A stretch of 64,000 nt of DNA from an uncultured virus (IMG/VR IMGVR_UViG_3300001346_000004) (lineage: Duplodnaviria > Heunggongvirae > Uroviricota > Caudoviricetes). Where the stretch lies: the IMG/VR virus record IMGVR_UViG_3300001346_000004. One strand, given 5' to 3'. The notes beneath the pieces were generated by a model that had not been told where the DNA came from, did not search any database, and saw nothing but the letters and a program-made list of their open reading frames with translations. How positions within the stretch are numbered: position 1 is the first letter of the stretch; each line of letters starts with the position of its first letter. Below are positions 1-41,783 of this stretch, in pieces. The translations under genes and the position numbers were made by a program.

Positions 1-3000
1 TAATTCAAATGTTCTTGCAGTTTTCTTTGCCCATTCATCTGGTACTGCAAGTTGTCCGCCTACTGCTCCTGCAACAACCAGTTTCAATCCGTTTACAGTT
101 AAGGCTCTGTCAAACACTGTACCATTGTTCTCAGTAATTAATGCACCATTGTTGTATTCTGCATCTGCCGGCACACCAGGTACTGCTGGTATTGCTGGCG
201 AACCTGATCCAAAATATGGATCATCAATTCTAATTACAGGAGGATTTTTTACTGATTCACTATACTGCAAATTATCAATAGTTGACAGCGTTCCTTCTCC
301 TGCACGTTTTAGATAGATGTTTATCTCTTGTCCATCTGCGGGCACATAAGGAAGCGTTACTTCATTGGTGCTACCATCAGCAACAACATAGTAGTCTGCA
401 CTACTTTCAACACTATCCCAACTATCACTAAACCAAGGCAATGCGTCCCACCCGCCTGTGACATCAAATGTTGTTCCTTGAATTTGAACTCCACCATAAT
501 CTATACCAGTCATTAACTGATTTAATTCTTTACCTTTCATACCGTCAGTTGGATTGTAGTATTTGTTTATTCTATTAACACTATCAAGTAATTCATCATT
601 TTTAGAATAATTAATTTTGATTACATCACCTATTTGTGGTGCATCATTTAATATTATTCTACCATGTATAAAACTATATCCGTCTACTTTCTTGGTAAAG
701 ACTGACACTGTATAATCACTTCCTAAAACTGTTTGATTATTTTTTGTAATACTAATTTTAGTTTTATCAATTGTAGGTGCATATCTTAAATCAAAAACAG
801 CAGTTGTTCCTGTTGCAGTAAATGTTTGACTGTCAGTAAATGTTGTAAATAATCCTTCTTTTGCAATTCTATCAAATTTTACTTTTAATTCAAAACTTCT
901 AGTTGTACCTTCACCTAGATATGCAACTGCTACAGCATCGTAAATTGATGCTCCGTTACCGCCAACTAAGTTAACTGTAGGTGTTGATGTATAACCTTTA
1001 CCTTTATTAAGTATGCGAACACCTGTAACTTTTCCGCTTGAGACAAATGCTTGTGCAGATGCTCCTGTACCATTGCCTTCAATTACAACATTCGGTGGAC
1101 TTGTATATCCACTTCCACCGTTAGCAATAACAATATCTGTTATACTGTAACCTTTATTGTCAAACCATGTTTTCCACGGCTCTTGTGTAACTAGTTCACT
1201 ATTTTCATTTACTGTAACAATCTTTCCATCATTACTAGAATACACTGCTGGTAAGTCGAAGTCATTTGCTGCTACTCCGTTACCTTCAAGTTGATTATAT
1301 TTACTTACGTATTCTCTAATAGTTGTTCTGTAAGGTTTTACTTCTTCAATATATTTCTGGAAACTTTCAAGGTTATCGTTACTGTAATTAGGAACAACTT
1401 TTAAGTTTCCAACATTGTGAGTTGCTTTTAAGAAACTAGTTTTGAATAGCCAATCTACATAAACTTGCTCATGTAACACATATCTTATACTGTTAAAGAA
1501 CGTTTTGTTCCATTCAACTTTATTATCACCTATAAATATATTTTCTTTAATTGCAGTGAATATATTTCTTAATTCTACAGTAGGTTCTAAATCATACAAT
1601 CCTGTATCAAAGTTTACTGTATTATCATATCCAGTACCAGAGACTTGTAAATTATATAAACTTTCTGATAATTTAATTGTACCTTGTCTTCTACCAACTA
1701 ATGTGTAATTACCTAAAGGTAAATCACTAGTGTCAGTCTCTTTTTTGAATACAGCCCAACTGCCTGATCCATATTCTTTAATTCTTATCAAATCGCCAAT
1801 GGCTACTTGAATTGATGGCTCTTCAGATGTATCTAATATTTCTTTAGTAACTCTAGTTGTTTCACTGTAACCTGTTTTCCACCAATCAATGTAAGTCCAA
1901 TATTTTGTTGTATCAAAGGCTTGAGATGCACTTCTATAAAATGTTTTTCTAATATCATCCCATGCATATATTGACCAATAATTGCCTGCTGTAGAATCAC
2001 TACTAACAAGTACACTAAACTGTCTTACAACAGGATTTACATAGGTATAATTTTTTCCGCTGTTAACAACGACTGCTTGTACAATTCTACCTTGATTGTC
2101 AATGTGTGTTAGTACTTCAGCGCCAACTCCATCGCCTTGTAATGTAACTGCTGGTCCAGGATACACTCCAGATGCTTCAGTTGTAAATATTTGTTGTGGC
2201 TTGTAACCAAACCCAGGATCAACAATGTTAATAGAAGTTATTTCGTTGTCTACAATATTAGCAGATAGTTTAGCCTGTTTTACTCTAACAGTACCTACAT
2301 TTTCTAGATCTACAATACTGTCAACTTTTACATCATATAGATATAAAACTTCTGCAGGTTCTGGATCAACAAGATTTAAATTAGTAAAATCTATTGTGTT
2401 TGCAAATGCTTCTTTAACTAATATTGCATTTACACTTTCAACTGTTTGTTTTAATATTTGTTTTCTATTTACAAACATACTTTGTCTTGGACGGAAACTT
2501 AAACCATATTTTTGTTTGGCTGGTAAGTTGGTATCAGGGACTCTATTTCCTTGTATATCGTAACCAACTAAACTGTCAATCCATTTCTTTTCAAGTTTAC
2601 TATTAGGAACACTATTTTCATCGCCTTCAGTAAGTAATAAAAATTCTTTATGTGCTACATTATTATTGCTGCTTGTATTATAATATTCGAGATTTAATAT
2701 GGAAATATTATCTGAAACTATATTTTTGTAATTGTAGAAGAAGATTTTATCTGCATCTGCAAGTGCAATATATGTATTACCTAATGTTGACGGATTATTA
2801 ATCAATGATGCTACTTCTCCAGCACTGATCTGTCTGCCTAATATATTTTCTGGAACTGTAACTTTGTTTTTCACCCAGAAGTAATATTTTGTTTCAGTTA
2901 CTAATCCTGTGTTTACATTTAAAAATTCTTTTACACTATAAACAGTATCGTCAGCATATAAAGGCTGTCCTGATACACCTAACTGTAATCCTTCATTTGT

Positions 3001-6000
3001 GTCTGCAAGTACAGACCATTCAGATGGTAAAAGTTTAGATTCAACCCATTCGTAAACATCAATACTAGATCCTTGTACCTGCGCTCCCCAATTTGCAGAT
3101 CTATATGCGATATCTGCTTGCTCGTAATCTAACCATTTTGCAGTGCTAACATTCCACCATAGTTTTCCAACATTTTTACCAAACCATGCAATTGTATCGT
3201 CTACAACAACATCTTCGGTTCCTATATTGTACGTTGCTGGATCATACAATGTTTTATATGTAAGTTCTTTTTCTGCTGCTGCAAGAACTTTTAATTTAGC
3301 AGGATCTACTACTTCTAGATCTTGTATCTTTGTGTCGCCACTATCTTTGTAAAGACTAATTCTTTTAATTCTTGCTAAATCAATTTTATCTGGTTCTGAT
3401 CCTATAATTTCAAGACTGTTAACATTAGGGTCTTTTCTAAATAATCTAACCATGCCGGCTTCTGGACCTGTAAAATCTAACGTTGGTCCATGTACTACCG
3501 GAGCAATATATTTTGGTGAACCTACAGCAATAATATTATTAGAACAAGATACACTATAACCAAATGACTCGTTAGTGCTTAAATCATCTTCTAATTTTTC
3601 TGTTAGTAAATATCTTGTACCTTTTAATTTAAACACATAAACAGCACCACTGTATCCACCGTATGTTGTAAATGATGTGTTTAATTCATCAAATGTCGTT
3701 GAACTTGTATCAAATCTTATAGGCAAATTGTAACCGGTATTATTTGCGCCAATTACTATTTGAGCAGCATTAGACGTCATACAAACTGATTGCCCAAAAT
3801 ATTCGTTTGGATATATTCCGTAACTTTCTATTTTTTGTTTTAATCTATAACGTGATGCTGAAGAATCTGATTCGTATTTAAAGATATATGCACTTCCTTG
3901 ATTTTGAAAGTTTTTATCTGCTTTAGGACTTGTAATAACAAGTGTTGTGCCTGACATATCCATGTCAACAGCGTAACCAAACATATCACCTGTGCTAATA
4001 ATTTCTTCTGCAGGTAAATCACTTATTTCTGCAAGACTTTCAGCAGTTATAGTTTGTTGTAAACTATAAAAGCCTACATCATTTTTAGTATAAACAAAAA
4101 CTTTACCTACTGATTCAGTAGAACTATCTCCAACGTTCACCCACGGATAACCATCATCAGGTGCCTGATTGTAACTTCTAATAGTGCTGTCTGGACCCAC
4201 TGCTGTGGCGCCAAGGTTTTCTAATTTGTGATAACCGCCTTGATATTTTACAACATCATTTTCCATGTATTCATAATTAGGTTGCCAGTTACCTTTATAG
4301 TTTTGAAAGTATTGTCCGTCTGCTTCTACTGCACCTATTATTAAAGTCGTACCGTCATTATTAAATGCAAGGGAACTACCAAACTTATCACCTTCCTTAA
4401 TCAACTCTGCAAGTTGATCCGCAGATAATATTCCTGATGCAAGTGTGGACCCGTCATCTTCTATACTAACGCTACTTGGAAGAGATACATTTGTGTTTAC
4501 TGAATCTAGTTTGATCCAATCATTGCTTTCAATAGATATAGTGCTACCATCGCCTTGATTGTCTGCAAGTGCTTTCCATAAGTTACCATTGTAGAATACA
4601 ATCGATCCTTTAGGATAGTAACTTTCTACAGAAACAGTTCCTGTGCCATCACCTCTACCTGTTGATACAAACTCTAATCCTGGAGTATTAGTTAATGCTC
4701 CTAGTGACATAAAGTCTGTAGTTCCTAATGTTTCAATTGTGTATGTACGGCCTGCAAGTATTTCTGTTGCTGTAAGTGTTCCACCTGGCTGATATATGCC
4801 TCTGTAATCTTTGTTCTGAATTAGTTCCCAGCCGCCTGCTGTTGTATAATTGTAAAGATAAACTCTACCCTTTGTATCATCCAATCCAGGAGCACTTACC
4901 GCCATTGTATACCCTGTGGCTGTTTGTGCTACAGTAATTTTACTACCAAAAAGTTTATCACCGTCTGCTCTTGGACTTACAAAACTTTCTACATAATTCC
5001 ATTGTTGAGCACTATAACTATACAGCGAAATCATACCTTGGTTACTATAACCTTCATTAGATCCACTTTCTAAAGCATTGATGTTGAATGTTTGTTCCCA
5101 GTCTTCTGTATAAACATTAATACTGCTGCCATCGCCTATAATAGTATTTTTTGCTTTCCACAATTGTCCTTCATACAATACAATATCATTAGCAGAATAA
5201 TTTTTATATGTGCTAAACATACCTTGATAATTTGATGGTACTCCTGATGCATTAGGTGAACCAACAATTAACCATTTGTTGTCTGGTGTTGTTGCAAGTT
5301 CTTCTCCATATGTATTTGTGACTGCTGTAGTAAATCCTGTTGTTAGTTGCAATAATTGTTTAACTGCTAAACCATCTGAAGTTTCAACATAAACAACAGT
5401 AATACCTGAACCTGGCATTGATGCTATAGTTTGATTTAATGATTCTAAGTATAATACTTTCTTACCAGTATGCTTAGGATCTGTACTTCCATATGCAGTA
5501 ATCTTTTTAGCACTAAATTGTTTTCTCTTTTCAACAACTTCCCACTTATTACTTCCGTTATTATCTATATACAATTTAGATTTTCTATCTAATAATGCTG
5601 TTTGTTCTAAATCTAAAGTATCATAACTTGCAAATCTAGCATTTGTTAACAAGATAGGATATGTTAATGTGCTAGGTTCAAAGTTTACATCTGCTGGTGG
5701 TTTTTCGGTTTCAAAACTTATAGTAAAATTAGTTACTTCAGTAATTTTATGAAAGCCGTCAATATCGCCAAACGTTTTAAATCCAATAAAGTCATCTGCA
5801 TTTAAATTATGTCTTTTTGTAAAAGTGACAGTTACTTTATTTTTATCTGTAGTGATGTTTGATATAGGCAATTCATTTGCAAAGTTAATACGCAATACAG
5901 TCCAATCACTATCATCAAAAGTTACCCATATATGATCGTTATTAAGTACCCCTGTAATGTCTATGTTTACTATATCATCTCTGGTCTGTACAACATATTT

Positions 6001-9000
6001 TGTTTGGTCGACTTTAACATATCCTGCCGTTCTAAGATATTGTTTTTCAACAGTAGTAGGATTAATATTAGTTGTAAAAGGTATAGGTGCAAAATAAAAA
6101 TCACTTTGATTGATTCTATAATATCTATCAAGCTCAGCAACGTTTTTAGTATTAGTAACTAATAACGGCTGTGGATTAAGAACAAAATTATCTGTATCTA
6201 ATTTAATTTCTACTACTTTAGTTTGATCTGTGCCACCGAGCTGTCCAACTTTGAATGCCCATTCTTCTTTTAAATTTACTCCTTCGTTATCAGTTCTACC
6301 AAGTTTGTTAAATATTTTAGTAAAAGAATTATTTGTTCCTTTTTCTCTAATAAATCCTTGATATAATCTAAACTGTGTTACACTATCTTCAGATAGGTTT
6401 TGTAAATAATCTCTTGTTTGATAGCCAATTGTATGTCTTGCTAACTCTCTTTGACTTTGTGACAGTCCTTCAGTATCAACATCAAAATAATCTTCCATTT
6501 GATTTATTTTAAAATCAAAGTTAGGAACTAATTTTTTCTCAGGTGTTGAGTCAAGTACTGTCCAATTAATAGCATTAAATTCTTCATCGCTTGTATGATT
6601 ACGTTTACTAGTGTAGTTGACACCTTGGTAATTTATAATGTCGCCAAGTTTATAATCAGTAAACGGCTGCCAAGATATAATATTAACATTATCAAATAAG
6701 AATCCCGGGCTAGTATAATCGCCGTCCCAGTCTACAGTTCTAAACCCTTGTACTTTAATTCTTTCTTGTCTATATCCAGTTGGTTTATCAAAAATTACAT
6801 CATTGAAAACTGTTCTATCATTAAAAATAGCAACATGTTCTTTAAGAACATAATTTAATTTTAGATAAAAAAGTCCTCTAGTAGTTTCATTTATTGTAAA
6901 TGTGAATGTTTGGAATTCTCTGTTGACATCAAAGTTTTTAATTTCCATCGGTTCGCCATTATCAGTCAATACATTATAGTCATAAAAACTATCAAGTATA
7001 TTATCAACTACTCCGATCGGTACAGTAACTTTAAGTTTTTCAGCGCCTGGGCTTACTGCAAGTAATGATCCAACTGCCCATTCATTACGTGTCCAGAACA
7101 TAAATTCTTTAGCAGCAGTTGTAAAGTCTTGCATTGCTTGATTATCTGTACTATAGTTTTCAAAAATAAACCCTTGTACTTTTAGATAATGCTCGTATCC
7201 TAGTAGGAAATCTACAACCTGTTGAACTGTGTTAAATGTAGTTCCATAACTTACATCTTCAGTAGCGAATTGATTGAAGTTTCTTCTGCGCTGTGCAGTT
7301 GCAGCACCTACTATTGGTAACTCTGGTAACTTAGTCCAATTATCTGTTTCAAATTTATCAGTGCTTGTATGAGTTAACTTTGCTCTATAAAACATACTTC
7401 TGTACTGAGCTATTGCTCCGTTGTTGTAAAGTTGATCTTCGGTCCAATTTACAAACGTTGCACTAACTCCGCCTACAGATAATGTTGGATCTGCTTGATT
7501 TGGAATTGATTTATAAATCCTAAAGTAAGGATGTACATCATCGTAACCGTTTACTATCCAGCCACCTTCTGTTTTTTCAAATATAATTCCGCTGTAACTA
7601 ACAGTTTGTATTGGAGAAGAAACATTAAAGAATATGTTATAATTTTCTTCTGGTATGAATATACTTGAACTTGCAGCAGCAGGACTTTTAGAATCTAGCA
7701 AATATTTTTGTTGAGTCTTATCAACAAAACCATTTAACCTACTAGTCAATCTTACATTAATATTTGATAATAAACTTTGTGCAGTTGCAATAGGCTTACC
7801 TGATGAAAGCAAATAACTACCTATATAGAATGCTAAACCACTTGTAATATCAGTACTGCCTGTAACAGGTAATACTATTTCATCAGGTTTAATAAAAATT
7901 CCTGTACTCTTACTAATAATTTGATCTGCAATATTTCGTTTTGTTTTGCTTCTATCAAAGTTTGCAACAATATATTCAAACGGACGAAGTAGGCACAATG
8001 CCATTGTTACAACAAATGGAAATTCTGAACTGCTTCTGTAAGCATATTCAGTAGGCGAAATATCACCTAGTTTGAAACTTCCTTTATTATTTGTTAATGT
8101 AAAGTTTGTTGCTAATCCACTATCAAGAGGACTTAATAATTCACCGTATTCATTTACAGGTATATGTCTTAATATACTTGTTCTAGCATATCTTTTATAT
8201 GTACCTGCTCTTTCGCCTTTTCTAATAATACCGTCTCTAATATCTTCCCAAAGAATTAGGTTTCCACTTGTATACGGTGCTTCACCGTATTGTGTATCCC
8301 ACCAACTTGGCTTTTCACTAAACCCAAGCATTTCCCAAGGACAACGATGCGGTCTATCTGTATCATAGAAATAGTTATAAGCACCTCTCCACCATCCTGG
8401 TAAATTTTCATCACCATCTGGTGTTGTCATATTAGAATAGGTATATGTAAATGTTTCTGTATCTTTTAGGTATGTGTTAGCAGTATAAGCAAGATTAGTA
8501 TTTGCTACCCATTTTAAAAATTCTTGGCTTGCTATTGCATCAAATTCTGCTTTTGTAAATACTGAATTTTTATAATAACCTCCAAGATTAGCATCTATAT
8601 CAAATACACTAGGTTCATAAGATTGTTTAATATTATTATAAATTCTATATTCTAATTCTAATAAAACATCATCACGGAAATCGCCATACGCAACAGTAAT
8701 ACTACCATCGTGACCTTGTATAACTTCTGTAGGTACTCTATATGTGTCGTCAATAAACTTCATCGGAGTATACTTTTTGTATAATCCAATTGACGTAGGA
8801 GTCGGTGGCACATGGCAAGACGCTGTTGATACGTACTCGCGTATTTCTATACTGTCACCTTGTATTAAATTGCCTAGTATAGTTAAAAATGCAAACTCTG
8901 AACTAAACGTGTAGTCTTTACCATGCAATAACTGTGTATTATTTTTATACACATATACTGCACGTCTACTTAATGTATCTAAATCAAAAGTATCATTTAG

Positions 9001-11820
9001 TGAAAATGTCTTTAATCCAGGGTCATCAACTGTATAGTTTATTTTTGTAAATGCTCCTGTACCTAATGTGTCACTATCTGCAAAAGGACTTGCTGAGCTT
9101 TTTGTTTTTGTTAATTGTTCAAAAATAGCATCTACTAAATCTGGTATGCTTGATGTGTCATCAACTTCAAAAGATTTTTTTATAAAATTTTCTTTGAATA
9201 ACGAATACTGTTTTTTAGCATATTGCAATGATTTAACAATATTAATTTCTTTGTCTGCAAGCATCAATAATGCTGACGCTGCAACGCCTGAATGTTTTAG
9301 AAATCTTTTTGCGTTTACAGTAAAGTCTGAAATATCTCTTAAATTAGATACTCCTGGAAGTACACCAGTAAATCTTGTGTCAAATTCTAATGCTGTTTTA
9401 ACATGATCAGCCGCTTGCCCAAGAGTAAAAGTTTTTAGTGTTTCATTTAACGGATTTTTTTCTAATCCTACAGGAATTTCATAGTAACCATTTTTAGGAA
9501 TTATTTCGCCAACTACTTTAATTGTAATAATATCGTTAGGTTGAAACACAGTAGTAAAAGTAAACTGGTTTCTATCACGTGTATAAGATTCTTTTAATTC
9601 ATCACCATTTCTAAAAAATATAATTTCAACAGTATCATCTATATTATCAAAATCAATAATATCAGTTTGTACAATGTTTGTAGCATCTATAATTGTAACG
9701 CTATCAACAATAGGCTGTAAGTATTTAGATTGTGTTCTAACCCAACCATTTTCATATTTGCCGTTTACCTGATAATAATGTTTATTGGTGTTATCAATAA
9801 TTGCCTGTTGGTTAATTGTGTATGTAAATTGTTCAGTTTCCCAACTCCAATCAAATTCTATATCACCTACATTATCAATATTTTGATAAGAAATACTTAT
9901 ACCCAATTCGTTGTCAACTGGTCCGGTACCTTGTTTATAACTAAAAATTTTGCTTCCTGCAAAACTACTTACTGGATACGTATTTGAATTATCAAGTGCA
10001 ACACCTGTTTCATTAAAACTGTCAAATAAAGGTGCTTGGTTTACAGTTGTTTTCTCTTGACTCTTTTTCCAAGATGTGCCGTCAAAGTAAAACTGCTTAC
10101 CTGAATTAGAAGTACCTCTACTAGCAAGAACACATTCATTGATTGTTGGTTTGGAATCTGTAGTTTCTTGTAAAGTAATCTGTCTTGTTCCGTTGTGGAC
10201 AATAAACTTAACTTCGTATATTTTGTTGTTTGCAAGATTATCATCATCTGCTGTAACAAGTACTCTTGCGCCTTCAAAAAGAAACTCACCGTCTACACTA
10301 TATCCTGTACTACCTTCAATAGTTGAAAATACATCTTTTGTATAATCATCAATATAATCAACTGAGGCTTTTGCAATTGTTCCTTGCTGGTAAAGTTTTA
10401 TACCAGGATGAAATTCAATAATTGGTCTCTTTGCTCTTGCTGTTTCAAGACCATCAAAATCACTATCTCTATATTTAAATGCATACTCAAGGACACTACG
10501 ATGGAACCATCTATTATATCTGCTCCACGGATTTGAATCATTACTGCTTCTGTTAATTGTTACATAATCTTTATTTGCAGGATACAAAGTTGCATCGTCA
10601 AAAGGTTGTGAATCAAACCCTTCATTATCAAATAATATTTCAGGAGTGTTTGCACTAATGTTAGGTGGAATTAGATCAGCAAATCTTATTAGCGTTATTT
10701 CTTTTCCTATTCCTTCAACTAGCCATGTGTCTGTAGCATACTTTTCACTTTCAACTTGTCCACGGAATTCAACTACCATTCCGTTTGATAGTTCTACTCC
10801 ATTAGCACTTTTATAATAAGTTTTTCCTAAAATTTCTTTTTCAACATTAATTGCTGTATTACTTTCAATATCAGCAATAATAAATCTGCCTAGTCTATTA
10901 GGATCTGTTTCACTTTGATAAAAAAGTACATCTGGAGCATTTAAAGGAACTGTAAATGTAAGTGTGCCTACTTCAATACTATTATTTGTAACTCCGCTAT
11001 TATAAATTAAACTGTTAAACGAAGCGTTGCTATCAACTAGTTCCCAGTCTTGACTATCTAAGTCTATCGAACTTCCGTCTGCAGGACTAACTTCTTCTTT
11101 TGCTCTCCAAAGTTTTCCATCAAATGCTGCTAAGTCACCTGGAAAATAAGTTATTAATGGGTCAAAATTTAAACTACCAGTATCATAATTTGTTCTTAGT
11201 GCAAAAGGCTCGCCTGGTGAGTTAATAGTAAACTTATATGTTTGACCTCTGTATAAAGTAAGTGTTGGATTGTTTGTAAGTCCATCTGGAGTAAACACCC
11301 AAGAAGAACCAATCCCTTGATTAACTTTATATGTAGATTGAATATCCTGTGTTTGACCAAAGATAGCCACCGTAGGTGGACCAGCAGGTACCCAATAGTA
11401 TTCTCTATAATTTATAAACTTATCCCAGTCTATAGGTGGATTCCAACTATAATGCTCTTGGAATGTAGTTTTATCATCTCTTTCGTTTGAATTACCAAAG
11501 AAAGTTTCAATATTTTTAAAATCTAGATAATCGTAAAACTTAGTTACAACCTGATTGTTTTCAACTGTAACGCCTGGCTCTAACTGATATCTACTTCTTA
11601 AAGTATCGTCAGTATCTAAATATACACTATTACCGTTATAAGTTTTGCCAAATCTTCTACCAACATATCCTGATAGTTTATCCAATGCACCTGGTTGTAC
11701 AAGAGGATCAACTACTCCTGATAGAAATTTGTCATTAGCGTCTGTTCTAAAAGTTTCTGGAAGAAGCTCGGAACTTTTTCTAATAGGTAACTGACTGTTA
11801 GGGTAAACCTTATCTACCAT
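1..11820 (-). CDS. Giant baseplate wedge/structural protein (gp7-like position), at least 3940 aa, 3' end outside window
   Basis: ATG at 11820-11818 overlaps the gp6-like stop (TAATG). Reads MVDKVYPNSQLPIRKSSELLPETFRTD..., and codons at 60-1 in the same frame read GGQLAVPDEWAKKTARTFEL. Absence from the ORF track fits no stop before the edge. Contains FG-GAP-like repeats (ESFGYSVS, EYFGQSVC, DMFGYAVD, DKFGSSLA, KLFGSKIT) at ~3500-5400. Confidence 0.85.
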   Translation of the reverse strand, partial: MVDKVYPNSQLPIRKSSELLPETFRTDANDKFLSGVVDPLVQPGALDKLSGYVGRRFGKTYNGNSVYLDTDDTLRSRYQLEPGVTVENNQVVTKFYDYLDFKNIETFFGNSNERDDKTTFQEHYSWNPPIDWDKFINYREYYWVPAGPPTVAIFGQTQDIQSTYKVNQGIGSSWVFTPDGLTNNPTLTLYRGQTYKFTINSPGEPFALRTNYDTGSLNFDPLITYFPGDLAAFDGKLWRAKEEVSPADGSSIDLDSQDWELVDSNASFNSLIYNSGVTNNSIEVGTLTFTVPLNAPDVLFYQSETDPNRLGRFIIADIESNTAINVEKEILGKTYYKSANGVELSNGMVVEFRGQVESEKYATDTWLVEGIGKEITLIRFADLIPPNISANTPEILFDNEGFDSQPFDDATLYPANKDYVTINRSSNDSNPWSRYNRWFHRSVLEYAFKYRDSDFDGLETARAKRPIIEFHPGIKLYQQGTIAKASVDYIDDYTKDVFSTIEGSTGYSVDGEFLFEGARVLVTADDDNLANNKIYEVKFIVHNGTRQITLQETTDSKPTINECVLASRGTSNSGKQFYFDGTSWKKSQEKTTVNQAPLFDSFNETGVALDNSNTYPVSSFAGSKIFSYKQGTGPVDNELGISISYQNIDNVGDIEFDWSWETEQFTYTINQQAIIDNTNKHYYQVNGKYENGWVRTQSKYLQPIVDSVTIIDATNIVQTDIIDFDNIDDTVEIIFFRNGDELKESYTRDRNQFTFTTVFQPNDIITIKVVGEIIPKNGYYEIPVGLEKNPLNETLKTFTLGQAADHVKTALEFDTRFTGVLPGVSNLRDISDFTVNAKRFLKHSGVAASALLMLADKEINIVKSLQYAKKQYSLFKENFIKKSFEVDDTSSIPDLVDAIFEQLTKTKSSASPFADSDTLGTGAFTKINYTVDDPGLKTFSLNDTFDLDTLSRRAVYVYKNNTQLLHGKDYTFSSEFAFLTILGNLIQGDSIEIREYVSTASCHVPPTPTSIGLYKKYTPMKFIDDTYRVPTEVIQGHDGSITVAYGDFRDDVLLELEYRIYNNIKQSYEPSVFDIDANLGGYYKNSVFTKAEFDAIASQEFLKWVANTNLAYTANTYLKDTETFTYTYSNMTTPDGDENLPGWWRGAYNYFYDTDRPHRCPWEMLGFSEKPSWWDTQYGEAPYTSGNLILWEDIRDGIIRKGERAGTYKRYARTSILRHIPVNEYGELLSPLDSGLATNFTLTNNKGSFKLGDISPTEYAYRSSSEFPFVVTMALCLLRPFEYIVANFDRSKTKRNIADQIISKSTGIFIKPDEIVLPVTGSTDITSGLAFYIGSYLLSSGKPIATAQSLLSNINVRLTSRLNGFVDKTQQKYLLDSKSPAAASSSIFIPEENYNIFFNVSSPIQTVSYSGIIFEKTEGGWIVNGYDDVHPYFRIYKSIPNQADPTLSVGGVSATFVNWTEDQLYNNGAIAQYRSMFYRAKLTHTSTDKFETDNWTKLPELPIVGAATAQRRRNFNQFATEDVSYGTTFNTVQQVVDFLLGYEHYLKVQGFIFENYSTDNQAMQDFTTAAKEFMFWTRNEWAVGSLLAVSPGAEKLKVTVPIGVVDNILDSFYDYNVLTDNGEPMEIKNFDVNREFQTFTFTINETTRGLFYLKLNYVLKEHVAIFNDRTVFNDVIFDKPTGYRQERIKVQGFRTVDWDGDYTSPGFLFDNVNIISWQPFTDYKLGDIINYQGVNYTSKRNHTSDEEFNAINWTVLDSTPEKKLVPNFDFKINQMEDYFDVDTEGLSQSQRELARHTIGYQTRDYLQNLSEDSVTQFRLYQGFIREKGTNNSFTKIFNKLGRTDNEGVNLKEEWAFKVGQLGGTDQTKVVEIKLDTDNFVLNPQPLLVTNTKNVAELDRYYRINQSDFYFAPIPFTTNINPTTVEKQYLRTAGYVKVDQTKYVVQTRDDIVNIDITGVLNNDHIWVTFDDSDWTVLRINFANELPISNITTDKNKVTVTFTKRHNLNADDFIGFKTFGDIDGFHKITEVTNFTISFETEKPPADVNFEPSTLTYPILLTNARFASYDTLDLEQTALLDRKSKLYIDNNGSNKWEVVEKRKQFSAKKITAYGSTDPKHTGKKVLYLESLNQTIASMPGSGITVVYVETSDGLAVKQLLQLTTGFTTAVTNTYGEELATTPDNKWLIVGSPNASGVPSNYQGMFSTYKNYSANDIVLYEGQLWKAKNTIIGDGSSINVYTEDWEQTFNINALESGSNEGYSNQGMISLYSYSAQQWNYVESFVSPRADGDKLFGSKITVAQTATGYTMAVSAPGLDDTKGRVYLYNYTTAGGWELIQNKDYRGIYQPGGTLTATEILAGRTYTIETLGTTDFMSLGALTNTPGLEFVSTGRGDGTGTVSVESYYPKGSIVFYNGNLWKALADNQGDGSTISIESNDWIKLDSVNTNVSLPSSVSIEDDGSTLASGILSADQLAELIKEGDKFGSSLAFNNDGTTLIIGAVEADGQYFQNYKGNWQPNYEYMENDVVKYQGGYHKLENLGATAVGPDSTIRSYNQAPDDGYPWVNVGDSSTESVGKVFVYTKNDVGFYSLQQTITAESLAEISDLPAEEIISTGDMFGYAVDMDMSGTTLVITSPKADKNFQNQGSAYIFKYESDSSASRYRLKQKIESYGIYPNEYFGQSVCMTSNAAQIVIGANNTGYNLPIRFDTSSTTFDELNTSFTTYGGYSGAVYVFKLKGTRYLLTEKLEDDLSTNESFGYSVSCSNNIIAVGSPKYIAPVVHGPTLDFTGPEAGMVRLFRKDPNVNSLEIIGSEPDKIDLARIKRISLYKDSGDTKIQDLEVVDPAKLKVLAAAEKELTYKTLYDPATYNIGTEDVVVDDTIAWFGKNVGKLWWNVSTAKWLDYEQADIAYRSANWGAQVQGSSIDVYEWVESKLLPSEWSVLADTNEGLQLGVSGQPLYADDTVYSVKEFLNVNTGLVTETKYYFWVKNKVTVPENILGRQISAGEVASLINNPSTLGNTYIALADADKIFFYNYKNIVSDNISILNLEYYNTSSNNNVAHKEFLLLTEGDENSVPNSKLEKKWIDSLVGYDIQGNRVPDTNLPAKQKYGLSFRPRQSMFVNRKQILKQTVESVNAILVKEAFANTIDFTNLNLVDPEPAEVLYLYDVKVDSIVDLENVGTVRVKQAKLSANIVDNEITSINIVDPGFGYKPQQIFTTEASGVYPGPAVTLQGDGVGAEVLTHIDNQGRIVQAVVVNSGKNYTYVNPVVRQFSVLVSSDSTAGNYWSIYAWDDIRKTFYRSASQAFDTTKYWTYIDWWKTGYSETTRVTKEILDTSEEPSIQVAIGDLIRIKEYGSGSWAVFKKETDTSDLPLGNYTLVGRRQGTIKLSESLYNLQVSGTGYDNTVNFDTGLYDLEPTVELRNIFTAIKENIFIGDNKVEWNKTFFNSIRYVLHEQVYVDWLFKTSFLKATHNVGNLKVVPNYSNDNLESFQKYIEEVKPYRTTIREYVSKYNQLEGNGVAANDFDLPAVYSSNDGKIVTVNENSELVTQEPWKTWFDNKGYSITDIVIANGGSGYTSPPNVVIEGNGTGASAQAFVSSGKVTGVRILNKGKGYTSTPTVNLVGGNGASIYDAVAVAYLGEGTTRSFELKVKFDRIAKEGLFTTFTDSQTFTATGTTAVFDLRYAPTIDKTKISITKNNQTVLGSDYTVSVFTKKVDGYSFIHGRIILNDAPQIGDVIKINYSKNDELLDSVNRINKYYNPTDGMKGKELNQLMTGIDYGGVQIQGTTFDVTGGWDALPWFSDSWDSVESSADYYVVADGSTNEVTLPYVPADGQEINIYLKRAGEGTLSTIDNLQYSESVKNPPVIRIDDPYFGSGSPAIPAVPGVPADAEYNNGALITENNGTVFDRALTVNGLKLVVAGAVGGQLAVPDEWAKKTARTFEL

Positions 11821-21803: not shown

Positions 21804-22625
21804 ATGAGAAAAGTAAAATACCTTAACAATAGAGACATATTAGCACAAATACACAAGAGTAAATCCGCCTTCTGCTCCTTTGTAGATAAAGATTTTCATC
21901 AATATGATATTATACTGCCAAGTCTCGAAAAAATTAACATTAGAACTACAGCCGAAGCAAAACGCAACCGTGCTGCTAGACTTGCGAGGGAAAATCACGA
22001 AGCAGCCGTAATGGCCGCTGGAAAGAAGATTCCTGCTAAAGAGTTCAATATAGATTATAAAACCATGGAAAAAACGGATTTAGTTTTCCGTATTATGTCA
22101 TTTGAACATATTCCTGAAGATCTTACACGTAAGAAAACAAAAAAGACAGTTGCTGACAGCCATGTTAAAGTAAACTTTCCTCCTTTTCAACATTGGAAGT
22201 TTGATGACAAAGGAAATTTAATATGTGTAGGCAAAAGTCACTGGGAAGGTGGTATGGAGAACGGTTTCTTCAATCCTAAAGCAGGTAAAGCAACAAATGA
22301 ACTTGCTCGCATGTGGATAAAACTTTGTGAAAGATATGCTACAAGAGGAAATGTACGAGGCTATACTTACAACGATGAAATGAAAGGACAAGCAATATTA
22401 CAATTAGCACAAATTGGGTTGCAGTTTGATGAATCAAAATCACAAAATCCATTCGCTTATTATACAGCCGCAGTAACTAATTCTTTTGTTAGGATCATTA
22501 ATATTGAAAAACGTAATCAAAATATAAGAGATGATATCTTAGAAATGAACGGAATGAATCCTAGTTGGACTAGACAGAATGCCGACACACATCCTAGTCA
22601 ACCTAAAGAAAAGAAAAAAACTTGA
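21804..22625 (+). CDS. gp55: Late-transcription sigma factor, gp55-like
   Basis: YLNNRDIL N-terminus; NVRGYTYNDEMKGQAILQL.....QFDESKSQNPFAYYT....NSF.RI...EK matches gp55; precedes gp47/gp46 as in T4-like phages. Confidence 0.85.
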   Translation: MRKVKYLNNRDILAQIHKSKSAFCSFVDKDFHQYDIILPSLEKINIRTTAEAKRNRAARLARENHEAAVMAAGKKIPAKEFNIDYKTMEKTDLVFRIMSFEHIPEDLTRKKTKKTVADSHVKVNFPPFQHWKFDDKGNLICVGKSHWEGGMENGFFNPKAGKATNELARMWIKLCERYATRGNVRGYTYNDEMKGQAILQLAQIGLQFDESKSQNPFAYYTAAVTNSFVRIINIEKRNQNIRDDILEMNGMNPSWTRQNADTHPSQPKEKKKT

Positions 22626-22650
22626 CATTATCAAAGATATCCGTTACAAT
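22622..22650 (+). promoter_or_regulatory. Sigma70-type promoter for the gp47-gp46 operon
   Basis: TTGACA (22622-22627), 17 nt, TACAAT (22645-22650), then AGGAG SD before ATG 22669. Confidence 0.75.
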
Positions 22651-22668
22651 ATAAAGTAAGGAGAATAA

Positions 22669-23679
22669 ATGCCGTTATTTAAGAAAGCAGCCTGCTTCAC
22701 TGATATACACTTTGGTATGAAGTCTGGTTCAAGAATACACAATGCAGATTGTGAACAATTTATAAAGTGGTTTTGTGAAGAAGCAAAAGCCGCTGGTGCT
22801 GAAACTTGTATATTTTTAGGAGACTGGCACCACAACCGTGCGACTACAGACGTCAGCACAATGAACTATACTGTTAGTAATCTAGAAAGACTTAATGAAA
22901 CGTTTGAAAAAACTTATTTCATGGTAGGTAACCATGATTTATTTTATAAAGACAAGCGTGAAATTAACTCTATTGAGTTTATGAGATTGTTTCCTAACAT
23001 TGTTCCAATAACAGATATATTTACAGAAGGTGAAGTTACATTACTTCCTTGGTTAGTTGGAGAAGAATGGAAAACAGTAAAAGATATTAAAAGCAGATAT
23101 GTGTTTGGACACTTCGAACTGCCATATTTTAAAATGAATGCAATGATTGAGATGCCTGATCACGGTGAACTACAACCAAATCACTTTATTAATCAAGAAT
23201 ATGTATTCTCAGGACACTTCCATAAACGTCAAACAAAAGGCAATGTAACCTATATGGGTAATGCATTTCCTCACAACTATGCAGACGCATGGGATGACGA
23301 ACGTGGTATGATGTTCTTAGACTGGGGAGGTACGCCTGAATATAAGACTTGGCCTAATCAGCCAGTGTTTAGAACTTTTAAACTTTCGCAACTATTAGAA
23401 AAACCTGAAGATCATTTAAAAGAAAATATGTATTGTCGTGTAACAATTGACGTACAGATTACTTTCGAAGAAGCAAACTTTATTAAAGAACAATTTATAC
23501 CACAGTTTAAACTTCGTGAACTTATGTTGATTCCAGAGAAAGTAGAAATTGAAAGCAATATCGATCCTATTGATGTTTCATTTGAAAGTGTTGATACGAT
23601 TGTATTAAACCAGATTGAACAATTAGACGGCGAAACGTATGACAGACGCATGCTTACGGAGATTTATCGAGACCTATGA
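22669..23679 (+). CDS. gp47: Recombination nuclease, Mre11/SbcD-like
   Basis: Metallophosphoesterase motifs TDIHFG, GDWHH, GNHD, GHFE, SGHFH. Confidence 0.92.
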   Translation: MPLFKKAACFTDIHFGMKSGSRIHNADCEQFIKWFCEEAKAAGAETCIFLGDWHHNRATTDVSTMNYTVSNLERLNETFEKTYFMVGNHDLFYKDKREINSIEFMRLFPNIVPITDIFTEGEVTLLPWLVGEEWKTVKDIKSRYVFGHFELPYFKMNAMIEMPDHGELQPNHFINQEYVFSGHFHKRQTKGNVTYMGNAFPHNYADAWDDERGMMFLDWGGTPEYKTWPNQPVFRTFKLSQLLEKPEDHLKENMYCRVTIDVQITFEEANFIKEQFIPQFKLRELMLIPEKVEIESNIDPIDVSFESVDTIVLNQIEQLDGETYDRRMLTEIYRDL

Positions 23680-25454
23680 TAAGAATTAAAAACATCACAG
23701 TTAAAAACTTTATGAGTGTGGGTAATCAAACTCAAGCAATTGATTTTGACAAAGGAGAACTTACACTTGTGCTAGGTGAAAACCTAGACTTAGGCGGTGA
23801 CGGTAGCGGTTCCAGAAACGGCACTGGTAAAACCACTATCGTCAACGCACTAAGTTATGCAATCTATGGCAATGCCCTTACAAATATTAAGAGAGACAAT
23901 CTTATCAACAAGATTAACGGCAAGGGCATGTTGGTTACTATCGAATTTGAGAAAGATAATATACAATATAGCATACAGAGAGGCAGAAAGCCTAATACTT
24001 TAAAGTTTACTGTTAATGGTACTGAACAAGAACCAACAGATACTGACGAAGCACAAGGTGATAGTAGAGAAACACAGAAAGATATCGAAGCATTATTTGG
24101 TATGAGCCATGACATGTTCAAGCATATACTTGCATTGAACACGTACACAGAGCCTTTCCTATCAATGAAGAACAACGATCAACGTGCTGTTATTGAACAA
24201 CTGCTTGGTATTACAATGCTTTCTGAGAAAGCAGAAATACTTAAAGACAAAATGAAAACTAATAGAGATGGTATTAGTACAGAGAGTACAAGAATAGAAA
24301 CAGTAAAAGCAAGTAATGAAAGAATTGAAGAAAATATTCAAAGCCTTGAACGCAAACAGCGTATGTGGGAAGATACAAAACAACAGAATATAAAGTCATT
24401 AAATGCAAGTATTGCAGCACTTGAAAAAATTGATATTGAATCAGAGATTGAAGCACACAAATGTTGGGAGCGTTTTAACGATAGAAAGCGTTCGCTTGAT
24501 GAAGCACAGCGTTGGATGGCATCTATTACTGCGGATACTGAGAAGCAAGAAAAAACAATTACAAAACTAGATAAAGAAGTTGCAGCACTTAAGGATCACA
24601 AGTGTTATGCTTGTGGGCAAGAACTACATGATAGTAAACAAGATGAAATCCTTAAAGGAAAAGAAGAACTATTGCAAGAAGCAGCACAACAAATACTAAC
24701 AAACGAAACACAATATCAAGAACACGCAAAGGTTATTGCTGATATAGGTGAACTAGAAAGTTGCCCTGCGACACAATATGATAGTGTTGAAGAAGCATAC
24801 AATCATCGTAACACAGTTGAAAGTTTACAAAAAGAACTAGAACAAAAGGAAACAGATGAAAATCCATATCTTGAACAGATCGATGATTTAAAAGAAACTG
24901 CGATACAAGAAGTTAGTTTTGATAAACTAAATGATCTTACAAAAGAAAAAGATCATATGGACTTCTTGTACAAACTGCTTACTAATAAAGATAGTTTTGT
25001 TCGTAAAAAGATTATTGAACAGAACTTAGCATATCTAAATCAACGTTTAACATACTACTTGTCTAAAGTAGGATTACCGCATATTGTTGAATTTCAGAAC
25101 GATTTAACAGTGGTTATTACACAACTAGGACAGGACTTAGACTTCGATAACCTCAGTAGAGGAGAACGAAATAGACTCATATTAAGTCTAAGTTGGGCAT
25201 TTAGAGATGTATGGGAATCTTTATATCACGGTATCAATCTATTGTTTATTGATGAACTTGTAGATAGTGGTATGGATAGTGCTGGAGTTGAAAGCAGTAT
25301 TAGTATTCTTAAGAAAATGACACGTGAACGTAATAAGAATGTATTCTTAATCTCGCACAGAGATGATTTAGCAGGGCGTGTTAATCATGTATTGAAAGTT
25401 ATTAAGGAGAATGGGTTTACTTCATATTCAAACGATATTGAAATAGTCCAATAA
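23676..25454 (+). CDS. gp46: Recombination ATPase, Rad50/SbcC-like
   Basis: Walker A NGTGKT, coiled coil with CYAC zinc hook, LSRGE signature, Walker B LLFIDE, SH H-loop. Confidence 0.93.
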   Translation: MIRIKNITVKNFMSVGNQTQAIDFDKGELTLVLGENLDLGGDGSGSRNGTGKTTIVNALSYAIYGNALTNIKRDNLINKINGKGMLVTIEFEKDNIQYSIQRGRKPNTLKFTVNGTEQEPTDTDEAQGDSRETQKDIEALFGMSHDMFKHILALNTYTEPFLSMKNNDQRAVIEQLLGITMLSEKAEILKDKMKTNRDGISTESTRIETVKASNERIEENIQSLERKQRMWEDTKQQNIKSLNASIAALEKIDIESEIEAHKCWERFNDRKRSLDEAQRWMASITADTEKQEKTITKLDKEVAALKDHKCYACGQELHDSKQDEILKGKEELLQEAAQQILTNETQYQEHAKVIADIGELESCPATQYDSVEEAYNHRNTVESLQKELEQKETDENPYLEQIDDLKETAIQEVSFDKLNDLTKEKDHMDFLYKLLTNKDSFVRKKIIEQNLAYLNQRLTYYLSKVGLPHIVEFQNDLTVVITQLGQDLDFDNLSRGERNRLILSLSWAFRDVWESLYHGINLLFIDELVDSGMDSAGVESSISILKKMTRERNKNVFLISHRDDLAGRVNHVLKVIKENGFTSYSNDIEIVQ

Positions 25455-25458
25455 TATT

Positions 25459-25704
25459 ATGGCAACTGACAGTCACGACAAAATGATTGAAGCGTTCCAG
25501 AACTATTTTAAATGGCAGGAACGTTTTGAATATCATGGAAGTGATGAAGCAGGCATTAAGTCTCGCTTTTGGTTGTCAGAGATACGTAACTTTGCAAGTG
25601 TAAGGCGTAAAGAAATACAAGATAAAAGGCAAGAAAGAAAAGAATCCAGAAAAGGCATGGTCGGTCGTCCTACTAAAGTAAGTAAGACTGATGAAGATTC
25701 CTAG
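25459..25704 (+). CDS. Small basic helical protein (possibly Hc1/histone-H1-like DNA binding)
   Basis: 81 aa, basic C-terminus, AG.KSR.WLSEIR.....RRKEIQ pattern; family assignment tentative. Confidence 0.5.
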   Translation: MATDSHDKMIEAFQNYFKWQERFEYHGSDEAGIKSRFWLSEIRNFASVRRKEIQDKRQERKESRKGMVGRPTKVSKTDEDS

Positions 25705-26140
25705 TTGGACATTTGAAGGCAAAGAAATAGAAAGTATTCCAAATGAATATGAAGGCTTTGTGTATCTTATCACCAACAAGACTAATAATAAAAAATACGT
25801 AGGCAAAAAACTAGCCAAGTTTAAAACAACTAAACCACCACTCAAAGGCAAAAAAAACAAGAGGCGCGGATACAAAGAGTCAGACTGGCAAGACTATTGG
25901 GGTAGTTCCGATAACTTACAGGCTGATGTTGACGCACTAGGCCCTCAAAACTTTACGAGAGATATAATTTACATGTGTCACGGTAGAGGCGAAATGTCCT
26001 ATCTTGAAGCACGAGAGCAGTTTGACCGTAGAGTTTTAGAATCAGATGAATATTACAATGGCATCATAAACGTTAGAGTAGGCGGTTCAGACAAATTACG
26101 CAAGGCACTTCTAGAAAGACATATCAAAACCAAGGCTTAA
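25691..26140 (+). CDS. Stand-alone GIY-YIG family endonuclease
   Basis: GFVYLITNKTNNKKYVGKK (GIY-YIG), YWGSS, conserved E (YLEAREQF) and YYNGII; no C-terminal NUMOD/HTH domain. Confidence 0.8.
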   Translation: MKIPSWTFEGKEIESIPNEYEGFVYLITNKTNNKKYVGKKLAKFKTTKPPLKGKKNKRRGYKESDWQDYWGSSDNLQADVDALGPQNFTRDIIYMCHGRGEMSYLEAREQFDRRVLESDEYYNGIINVRVGGSDKLRKALLERHIKTKA

Positions 26141-26144
26141 CTTA

Positions 26145-26582
26145 ATCTACATAGCAACACTGTTTGGTCGAGGCTGCTCGACCCACTTTGAACTTGTGAG
26201 AAATACACCGGTGGACTAGTGCGTTGCAAGGACAATACTAACTTAGGTATAAAAGATCGTGGCTCTGAGAAAAAGCAACCACAGAGTAAGTGATTTCGAC
26301 TGTTTGGGATTAACTACTTTCCGCGTATTATGCGAATGCTGAAGTAGGGGGTATGCGGTACGCCGCCTCCGTACATATTATATGTAATCTTCTTAAACAG
26401 GGTGGTGATGCTAACTCACATGAAGCTCAACAACACATTCGCCCGGCAACGGGCGAATTGTGGCTCTACTATCTACATGATGCTAACAAAATTACTTCGT
26501 AATTGTTGTAATCATATATATAATGTGTAAGAAGAAAAATGCATTGAGCTTTAGCGAAAATGCATAAGATCTTTAGATCTTA
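26145..26582 (+). ncRNA. Candidate large structured non-coding RNA (or structured origin region)
   Basis: ORF-free and visibly more GC-rich than flanks. Nested stems: GGTCGAG-GCTG-CTCGACC, CTGTTTGGGA/TCTTAAACAG, GCGG-TACG-CCGC, ATTCGCCCG-GCAA-CGGGCGAAT and others; G-U pairs and GNRA/UNCG-type loops favour the plus strand. Confidence 0.6.
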
Positions 26583-26598
26583 CTTACAATGTAAATGA

Positions 26599-26605
26599 AT
26601 AAATA
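26599..26605 (+). promoter_or_regulatory. Late promoter ATAAATA
   Basis: 30 nt upstream of ATG 26636. Confidence 0.6.
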
Positions 26606-26635
26606 ACATTACATAACGGTTATGGATAGGAATCA

Positions 26636-41226: not shown

Positions 41227-41333
41227 ATACTTGTGTCAGATAGCGAGCCGCATAATGTGGCGGACTTATGCTGTTTAACCCACAGCGTACCGGATAGAAC
41301 CCGGATGGGACTACTTTTTATAGGAGAAAACAA
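41224..41333 (+). promoter_or_regulatory. Late promoter plus three-hairpin structured 5' leader
   Basis: TAAATA 41224-41229; stems GCCGCA/TGTGGC, TATGCTGT/ACAGCGTA, CCGG/CCGG; AGGAG SD. Confidence 0.6.
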
Positions 41334-41783
41334 ATGGGAAGACCACTTAACAAAAGATTATTCGGAACGCCAACAGCGGCTGGATCTGAAATCAAAGTCA
41401 ACTTTCATAACGACACAGCAGTTAAAGAAGGTTATATCGTAAAGCAAAAAGGTTCAAAGAAATTTGTATGCGAAGAAATTGAAACAGCAGGCGAATATAC
41501 TTGTGTGCTAACAACTGGTAAATTACCAGCAGCATTAGCAGCAGGCGAAATGTCAATTTCATTCAAAATGGACGATGCAGAAACATACACAGTAAGTAAA
41601 ATTTCTGGGAAGAAAGCAACACTATCAGCACCTAGTGCAACAGGTACTAACTTGTATGACGGTGTTACTGTTCCTTGGAACTTTGCAGCATCTACTTCAG
41701 ATGGCGCAGCACAAGTTGAAGAAGCAGGTGACGACAACACATTGATCGGCACTGATGACGACGACTTCACAGAAGACGCATAA
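41334..41783 (+). CDS. Virion structural protein (possible head decoration)
   Basis: Strong SD, late promoter; MGRPLNK start; paralogous to the next gene. Confidence 0.7.
   Translation: MGRPLNKRLFGTPTAAGSEIKVNFHNDTAVKEGYIVKQKGSKKFVCEEIETAGEYTCVLTTGKLPAALAAGEMSISFKMDDAETYTVSKISGKKATLSAPSATGTNLYDGVTVPWNFAASTSDGAAQVEEAGDDNTLIGTDDDDFTEDA

Follow-up and report, generated by a model that had tools for sequence, protein, structure and literature searches.

Gene content and position of the element

The stretch analyzed, 64,000 nt in length (hereafter, the window), derives from a large T4-like phage. Its plus strand carries, in this order, the genes of the late sigma factor gp55, gp47 and gp46 (21804-25454; PHROGs matches), an 81-aa basic ORF (25459-25704), a 149-aa GIY-YIG gene (25691-26140), a 495-nt gap and structural genes. 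The nearest cultured gp55 and gp46, 41-50% identical to those of the window, were found in PA5oct/Paride, Phosso, Atu_ph07 and the PBECO4/GAP32 group. The coding strand switches ~5 kb from the locus. The 81-aa ORF occupies a conserved slot after gp46; no family match was obtained for it in PHROGs and domain-family searches, and its relatives presumably resemble the histone-H1-like protein Hc1.

The GIY-YIG product is a nuclease of the SegE type (PF19835, E 3e-34) and consists of a lone catalytic domain, as had been recognized in the initial annotation of this DNA. The best Foldseek row for its predicted structure (pLDDT 73) was the I-TevI catalytic domain, with a nonsignificant E of 1.1, and no solved relative was found by sequence search. 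This GIY-YIG domain protein is labeled 'NAD synthetase' in PHROGs (phrog_447) and in many GenBank records.

The gap (26141-26635) is the sole long ORF-free stretch of the window, as had been noticed previously and as was seen again on an ORF map that included open-ended frames. Near its end is the sequence TAAATA (26600-26605, plus strand), which we take to be T4 late-promoter-like; it is probably the late promoter of the next gene (302 aa) and is located outside the element described below. Elsewhere in the window, positions 1-11820 of the minus strand form a single open frame of 3940 aa that runs off the window beside baseplate-type genes, and an Rfam freshwater-2 RNA (69 bits) was found at 41246-41336 of the plus strand, ahead of a 149-aa ORF.

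Structure of the RNA body

The gap had been described as packed with stems, and its folding z-score of -2.89, which none of 100 shuffles reached, agreed with this description. Covariation was studied in the 30 of 44 window-type sequences that were left by a 96% filter, 28 of which were aligned. In these 28 distinct relatives, a 73-pair structure was 98.7% paired, with both-side changes in 22 of the 73 pairs, a count reached in 0 of 500 shuffles. When the structure was slid along the alignment as a control, pairing was 36-42%, a lenient comparison because the structure was drawn from the same sequences. The RNA body contained 267 G-U and no A-C pairs among 1652 cells; therefore, the plus strand is fixed and RNA is favored. 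Thus, the conserved structured RNA proposed initially was borne out by covariation, and the alignment indicates that ~250 nt of the plus strand is a folded RNA.

This RNA begins with a 5' domain of type A (26152-26282), recognized by covariation and profiles, in place of which relatives carry a type B domain or Polynucleobacter-1 (type C). It consists of P1 (26154-58/26223-27), P2 (26166-83), P3 (26184-87/26218-21), P4 (26235-50) and P5 (26259-82). A central double-pseudoknot domain follows at 26284-26400. In it, loop 26300-05 of the hairpin 26284-26319 pairs with 26395-400 (PK1), and 26323-28 pairs with 26358-63 in the loop of P8, 26347-70 (PK2); both-side changes were observed in two of six pairs of each pseudoknot. 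The domain also contains the variable stem P9 (26373-85). PK2 was present in 91 of 98 A/C-type elements, with at least 11 different complementary sequence pairs.

Most of the stems listed in the initial annotation held in the 28 relatives, namely GCAAC/GTTGC (26154-58/26223-27), the stem-loop at 26166-26183, GTGG/CCAC, CTGTTT/AAACAG, the variable TACATA hairpin, the GCAA hairpin and AATTAC/GTAATT. Three features had to be redrawn. One pair of CTACTT/AAGTAG is C-A in 12 of the 28 sequences, and 26315-19 covaries with 26284-88 instead. The outer pair of GCGG-TACG-CCGC is broken in 19 of 28, and its TACG, which had been read as a UNCG-type loop, is unconserved because these bases are the 3' strand of the pseudoknot with 26323-28. 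The long-range helix, read earlier as enclosing a multibranch junction, is a pseudoknot formed from a hairpin loop. The RNA element of ~450 nt postulated earlier stands as to its folded body, and its final ~100 nt resemble DNA hairpins. In agreement with the initial annotation, the gap gave no match to tRNA, tmRNA or any Rfam family, nor to the family models of group I and II introns and RNase P. A C/D-box or K-loop reading was rejected, types A and C having no conserved D box.

Twin boxes flanking a hairpin

The gap also contains two boxes that were absent from the initial annotation. Box 1 (26414-26424, plus strand; core ACATGA at 26418-23) and box 2 (26471-26481, plus strand; core ACATGA at 26475-80) are the same at the variable positions. 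In the window, they read ACTCA-CATGA (26414-23) and ATCTA-CATGA (26471-80) and flank a hairpin with a GCAA loop (26437-26458, plus strand) supported by covariation. All 170 elements examined had a hairpin of at least seven pairs between their boxes.

At two free positions, the boxes agreed in 120 of 120 cases, where ~61 and ~64 were expected. With a looser pattern, 153 of 154 distinct viral matches agreed at all free positions, the sole exception being a second chance match in locus L134. As a control, cellular genomes were searched in the same way: of the matches lacking the RNA, 30 of 112 agreed, and of those with it, 8 of 8. The next box position agrees in 161 of 176 elements and differs in 15, the window included.

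The boxes are identical within an element yet variable between phages. At least 5-6 independent double switches were counted within cassette types. Loci L003 and L004, which are 98.7% identical and have the same nuclease, differ in both boxes, and record G003 contains two copies of the element with different boxes, each self-matched. Because of these double switches, the L003/L004 pair and the G003 copies, shared descent does not explain box identity. Such a rule would be expected if one box paired with the template strand of the other; a protein reader fits less well. Four of five long records carry one copy of the element and the fifth carries two. Different self-matched boxes were found in other lineages (L339, L341), and the candidate boxes of a lineage with RNase HI are unequal (GTGAAATC or GTGATTTC vs GTGATATC), which speaks against the pairing rule. 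Motif counts and mutual information revealed no third, complementary partner of the boxes within the locus.

The possibility that the boxes are a dispersed promoter motif was discarded, since their 7-mers occurred at the background level and the pair only once. A box match inside an ORF in L149 was due to chance, and record G009 (L278), a chance 16-mer match, served only as a decoy and was left out of the reverse-transcriptase count given below.

DNA-type hairpins downstream of box 2

Behind box 2, the AT content rises from ~57% to ~70%. This part of the window contains a minus-strand hairpin closed by the triloop C-GAA-G (26490-26504; 167 Watson-Crick and 0 G-U cells) and then, at 26505-26581, an AT-rich stretch, a conserved GAGC..AGCGA motif in a hairpin loop (26546-57) and a last hairpin (26566-81), which in many relatives has a C-GNA-G loop on the plus strand that is absent here. 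C-GNA-G loops are typical of single-stranded DNA. A C-GNA-G triloop hairpin was present no more than 170 nt behind box 2 in 143 of 169 elements, compared with 1 of 159 segments of equal length from the RNA body upstream and, in the cellular control, 4 of 119. The hairpins also have a fixed polarity: the minus-strand hairpin, located 11-17 nt behind box 2, precedes the central motif in 77 of 78 elements, and the plus-strand hairpin follows it in 67 of 71. The GAGCG..AGCGA motif itself was found in 128 of 169 elements and had one site in the 268 kb of record G008. Opposed single-strand initiation sites are known from RSF1010-type origins, which offer an analogy for hairpins on both strands.

Modularity of the element and its relation to Polynucleobacter-1

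Profiles sorted 176 distinct elements into three types by their 5' domain and into two by their central domain, and chimeras were observed as well. The 5' domain of type C is the Rfam motif Polynucleobacter-1 (RF01718), with scores of 62-115 bits in 6/20 and of 80-114 bits in 6/20 loci, the membership cut-off being 37 bits. The window element did not match this covariance model at the gathering score or at E<=10; its type shares the central domain and the boxes with the Polynucleobacter-1-positive loci L052 and L058. The model (141 nt) covers that domain only, from which the 5' domain of the window differs, and the central pseudoknots, the boxes and the DNA module fall outside it. Because the type C domain is Polynucleobacter-1, the motif is one module of a larger element of ~450 nt: type C members carry the motif and then the same central domain and twin boxes. 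No function for Polynucleobacter-1 was found in the sections of PMC2864571 that were available. Beyond this motif, no description of the element was found in the literature searched, mostly without subscription papers and in partial texts (PMC2864571, PMC7318152, PMC5043065, PMC5737381, PMC3016281). The phage RNA-plus-DNA element is real and modular and, as a whole, undescribed there.

Independence of the element from the adjacent nuclease

In the vicinity of the window, linkage between nuclease and RNA is tight. Among 80 GIY-YIG nuclease loci (L001-L080), 53 had at least 450 nt downstream, and the element was found in 52 of these; in the 53rd, the contig ends inside the element. Contig ends were located no more than 450 nt downstream of the nuclease in 27 of the 80 loci and no more than 450 nt upstream in 2, probably because the RNA is shared among strains and assemblies break in it.

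A search that used only the RNA motif yielded 120 viral loci, 71 of which had at least 900 nt upstream. Of these 71 box-defined loci, 59 had a GIY-YIG gene upstream, one had it downstream, six had a PD-(D/E)XK gene, four had no nuclease and one was a chance match. The six PD-(D/E)XK genes encode a resolvase (PF24608, phrog_244), as found by phmmer for all six and by domain scanning for four. Each of the 5' types A, B and C is found downstream of members of both nuclease families, the PD-(D/E)XK cases numbering 5, 1 and 5. In a set of 28 PD-(D/E)XK loci, several of which are near-duplicates, 15 had standard boxes, 2 had other boxes, 9 had an RNase HI gene and then a B-type RNA, and 2 were out of range. 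Nucleases that are 89-91% identical carry different RNA types, and Melnitz-3, whose nuclease is 67% identical, has a 148-nt gap without the element. The GIY-YIG and PD-(D/E)XK families never occurred together in the long records checked, all of which are incomplete, and the slot of the GIY-YIG gene, filled by PD-(D/E)XK resolvases in some relatives, holds EndoVII or a RusA-like gene in cultured ones. Nuclease and RNA are often separated by inserted genes; in L034, L074, L087, L121 and L144, a small basic ORF or a C-terminal extension was observed at this place.

The initial annotation had favored an undescribed GIY-YIG/ncRNA ribonucleoprotein. This proposal is contradicted by the refuting condition that the initial annotation itself had set for the partnership, because the element was found independently of the nuclease gene: it follows PF24608 PD-(D/E)XK genes or RNase HI in some phages, stands by itself in others, and may lie on the strand opposite EndoVII. 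Conversely, in Melnitz-3, the nuclease was found without the element. Nor was the guide-like variable segment suggested earlier seen, that is, a variable guide in a fixed scaffold with outside targets: in the alignments, variable hairpins occurred at internal sites only, there was no guide at the edges, and the position of the locus was fixed. No nuclease residue tracked the boxes. HEARO and OMEGA systems likewise have a structured RNA beside a compact nuclease gene; here, in contrast, one nuclease family can take the place of another, the locus keeps its position among core genes, and neither guide nor mobility was seen. Judging from gene context, the GIY-YIG gene is most likely a neighbor in a replication-recombination cluster, and its product would most likely be a junction-cutting stand-in for a Holliday-junction resolvase.

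Counterparts in cultured jumbo phages

Blastn of the window element against cultured phages gave no match. The same layout, with its own promoter and other twin boxes, was nevertheless found in PBECO4/121Q, GAP32, BF and K64-1. The syntenic gap of PBECO4 had a folding z-score of -4.4 and relatives in 73 records. Six aligned cultured members share a TATAAT promoter, both pseudoknots, in which compensatory changes were read by eye, twin boxes (the sequences CGTCAAG, TCGTCAG and CTTCAAG occur), an AT-rich stretch and a C-GNA-G hairpin. A hairpin with T6-7 follows box 1 in 6 of 7 cultured-phage copies, and the transcript may therefore hold box 1 without box 2. In these phages, EndoVII is encoded on the opposite strand or the vicinity lacks a nuclease (BF 259 kb, K64-1); BF carries two full copies of the element.

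The domain profiles of the window family missed the cultured-phage element, apart from a single match with E 0.01 at the right position. Homology with the window family is only probable because it rests on layout and this one match. In the cultured genera, the element appears as an unannotated structured stretch of ~500 nt with its own promoter (L291 13630-14300, L344-L347, L350, L351; Asteriusvirus, Mimasvirus, Eneladusvirus, Alcyoneusvirus), for which BLAST gives 2-5 places per record. Atu_ph07 has no such gap. In PA5oct (L290 13900-15380), the syntenic stretch is gene-poor, with strong hairpins, an AT-rich end and no recognizable twin boxes, and the four ncRNAs reported for this phage all lie off the syntenic gap. 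Sinorhizobium phage Phosso (L349 8410-9425) has a 1-kb gap from resolvase to RNase HI, in which a repeated TGCTTTA flanks a hairpin and a minus-strand C-GAA-G hairpin is located at the second copy.

Possible function of the element

No account of how DNA replication starts in jumbo phages of the PA5oct/121Q/GAP32 group was found in the literature searched. As its second proposal, the initial annotation had offered an RNA with a role in replication or recombination, and this was the better of the two. The chances are about even that, in this jumbo-phage group, the element acts in cis as a transcript-primed origin of replication, like ColE1 RNA II or the R-loop origins of T4. Starting from what is demonstrated above, namely the structure, the identity of the boxes, the polarity of the hairpins and the independence from the nuclease, transcription, hybrid formation and replication would proceed as follows. 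The RNA would be made from the gp55-47-46-nuclease operon or, when moved, from its own promoter. Its fold would expose box 1, which would base-pair at box 2 with the template strand of the DNA and hold an R-loop open beside the hairpin module. Trimming of the RNA end, by RNase H or some other nuclease, might then leave a primer, and through the hairpins both strands might be loaded with helicase or primase.

The layout fits this class of origins: covariation of the RNA type is followed by the rise in AT, and PBECO4 has a promoter-like site for a predicted transcript. RNase HI is encoded directly before the RNA in 9 of 28 PD-(D/E)XK loci and beside the gap in Phosso; it was found in none of five long records, all incomplete and window-type ones among them, where a host enzyme is possible. 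The window has no terminator after box 1, and a crude parser found a T-run (T4) at this place in just 4 of 98 elements of types A and C and 21 of 70 of type B. The RNA-like character of the inter-box hairpin, which has a U-G pair and a GNRA loop, counts against an origin, and the shared box core of 6-7 nt is weak for an unaided RNA-DNA hybrid. Further points against it are the unequal candidate boxes of the RNase HI lineage, the box position that differs in 15 of 176 elements, the weak sequence homology with the cultured-phage element, and Atu_ph07 and PA5oct, the former without the gap and the latter without recognizable boxes. In G008, GC and AT skew follows gene direction and gives no origin signal. 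Four RNA runs were available as contigs only, which carry no level, ends or strand; run X1 gave an even ~20x over all genes, as DNA would, and in X5, X11 and X10 the element was covered thinly or in part.

The comparison with ColE1 RNA II is proposed as an analogy, a long folded non-coding transcript lying upstream of a DNA site in both cases. Masukata and Tomizawa reportedly showed that an upstream stretch of RNA II pairs with template DNA near the origin. With RNA II as precedent (PMC5043065), the analogy would extend to a persistent hybrid, to trimming by RNase H and to the loading of helicase onto the displaced strand. The two systems are set side by side by description, and they differ in that here no antisense RNA I was found, the context is a phage, the boxes vary with lineage and hairpins occur on both strands. 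With T4 oriF/oriG and oriE, the element shares a T4-like phage setting, a transcript with an AT-rich unwinding element and, as in oriE, direct repeats. According to the available portion of PMC3016281, oriF forms R-loops that are processed by RNase H, oriE has direct repeats, T4 R-loop origins of ~100 bp need no specific RNA sequence, and active origins lie near switches of the coding strand, such as the one ~5 kb from the present locus; no conserved folded RNA is described there for T4, unlike here. The long structured motifs ARRPOF, GEBRO and PAGEV also lie in replication regions, and whether they act as RNA or single-stranded DNA is undecided in what was seen of PMC5737381; these are plasmid motifs, and the element has no Rfam match to them.

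A more specific mechanism is tentatively suggested. The modular RNA might be a self-targeting guide, whose short box pairs with its counterpart in the DNA further downstream and thereby opens the origin. Origin specificity would then reside in RNA-DNA complementarity and could be reprogrammed by a joint change of both boxes. Such RNAs would range from uncultured aquatic jumbo phages to those of E. coli, Klebsiella and Serratia.

Alternatively, the element might be a free, trans-acting structured RNA (a scaffold, decoy or ribozyme) in which the boxes serve as binding sites for a two-fold symmetric protein or as marks of two processing sites; the hairpins in the DNA would then be a separate neighbor. 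The rich tertiary-type structure, the exchangeable 5' domains, the own promoter of displaced elements (L072, L146) and the two copies each in BF and G003 would suit such an RNA, which we consider doubtful, since a protein reader leaves unexplained why boxes differ between near-identical phages or same-genome copies yet match within a copy, and since the spacing between box 2 and the DNA-type module is constant. That the locus serves recombination or packaging is unlikely. Its direct repeats would slip-pair or exchange strands, giving branched DNA for gp46/47 and the adjoining resolvase, with transcription only opening the site; the identity of the direct repeats suits slip pairing between DNA strands, next to the locus there is usually a junction-type nuclease from one of three families, and domains are shuffled between phages. 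However, copies occur far from any nuclease (BF 259 kb, K64-1, G003 166 kb), and such a site does not need a 250-nt double-pseudoknot RNA.

That the element is a 3' untranslated control region stabilizing, processing or ending the gp55-47-46-nuclease message appears improbable: in the window it begins within ~12 nt of the stop codon and has no promoter above chance, but in cultured phages it has its own promoter and the adjacent nuclease is on the other strand, and a moved element follows unrelated genes. Very improbable is a degenerate selfish element, either a split intron or a template RNA of a reverse transcriptase jumping between the boxes; template-jump signals are matching direct repeats around a hairpin, which the boxes resemble, yet there was no intron family match and no interrupted gene, no RVT_1 in four relevant, incomplete records, no reverse transcriptase adjacent, and the position among core genes is fixed. 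Finally, an OMEGA- or HEARO-like partner or guide of the GIY-YIG nuclease is hardly credible, the tight linkage near the window (52/53) and the nuclease upstream of 59/71 box-defined loci being outweighed by the three 5' types behind both nuclease families, the different RNA types of nucleases that are 89-91% identical, the Melnitz-3 nuclease without RNA and the frequent intervening genes.

If the locus is indeed a transcript-primed origin, it would name an origin for a large phage group, give a function to the orphan motif Polynucleobacter-1 and present a rare signature, in which two boxes co-vary by identity and not by complementarity. Since the same layout exists in cultured phages, single and double box changes would provide a test. 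The RNA-guided GIY-YIG enzyme is removed as a false lead, and, judging from the gene context, a junction resolvase can apparently be replaced by the phrog_447 'NAD synthetase' protein, which is widespread.

The element was also detected in eight contigs of bacterial bins (L355, L377, L395, L397, L398, L400, L423 and L437), three of them in Methylococcaceae/Methylococcales bins. These are probably phage contigs, and their binning is a possible hint of the host.
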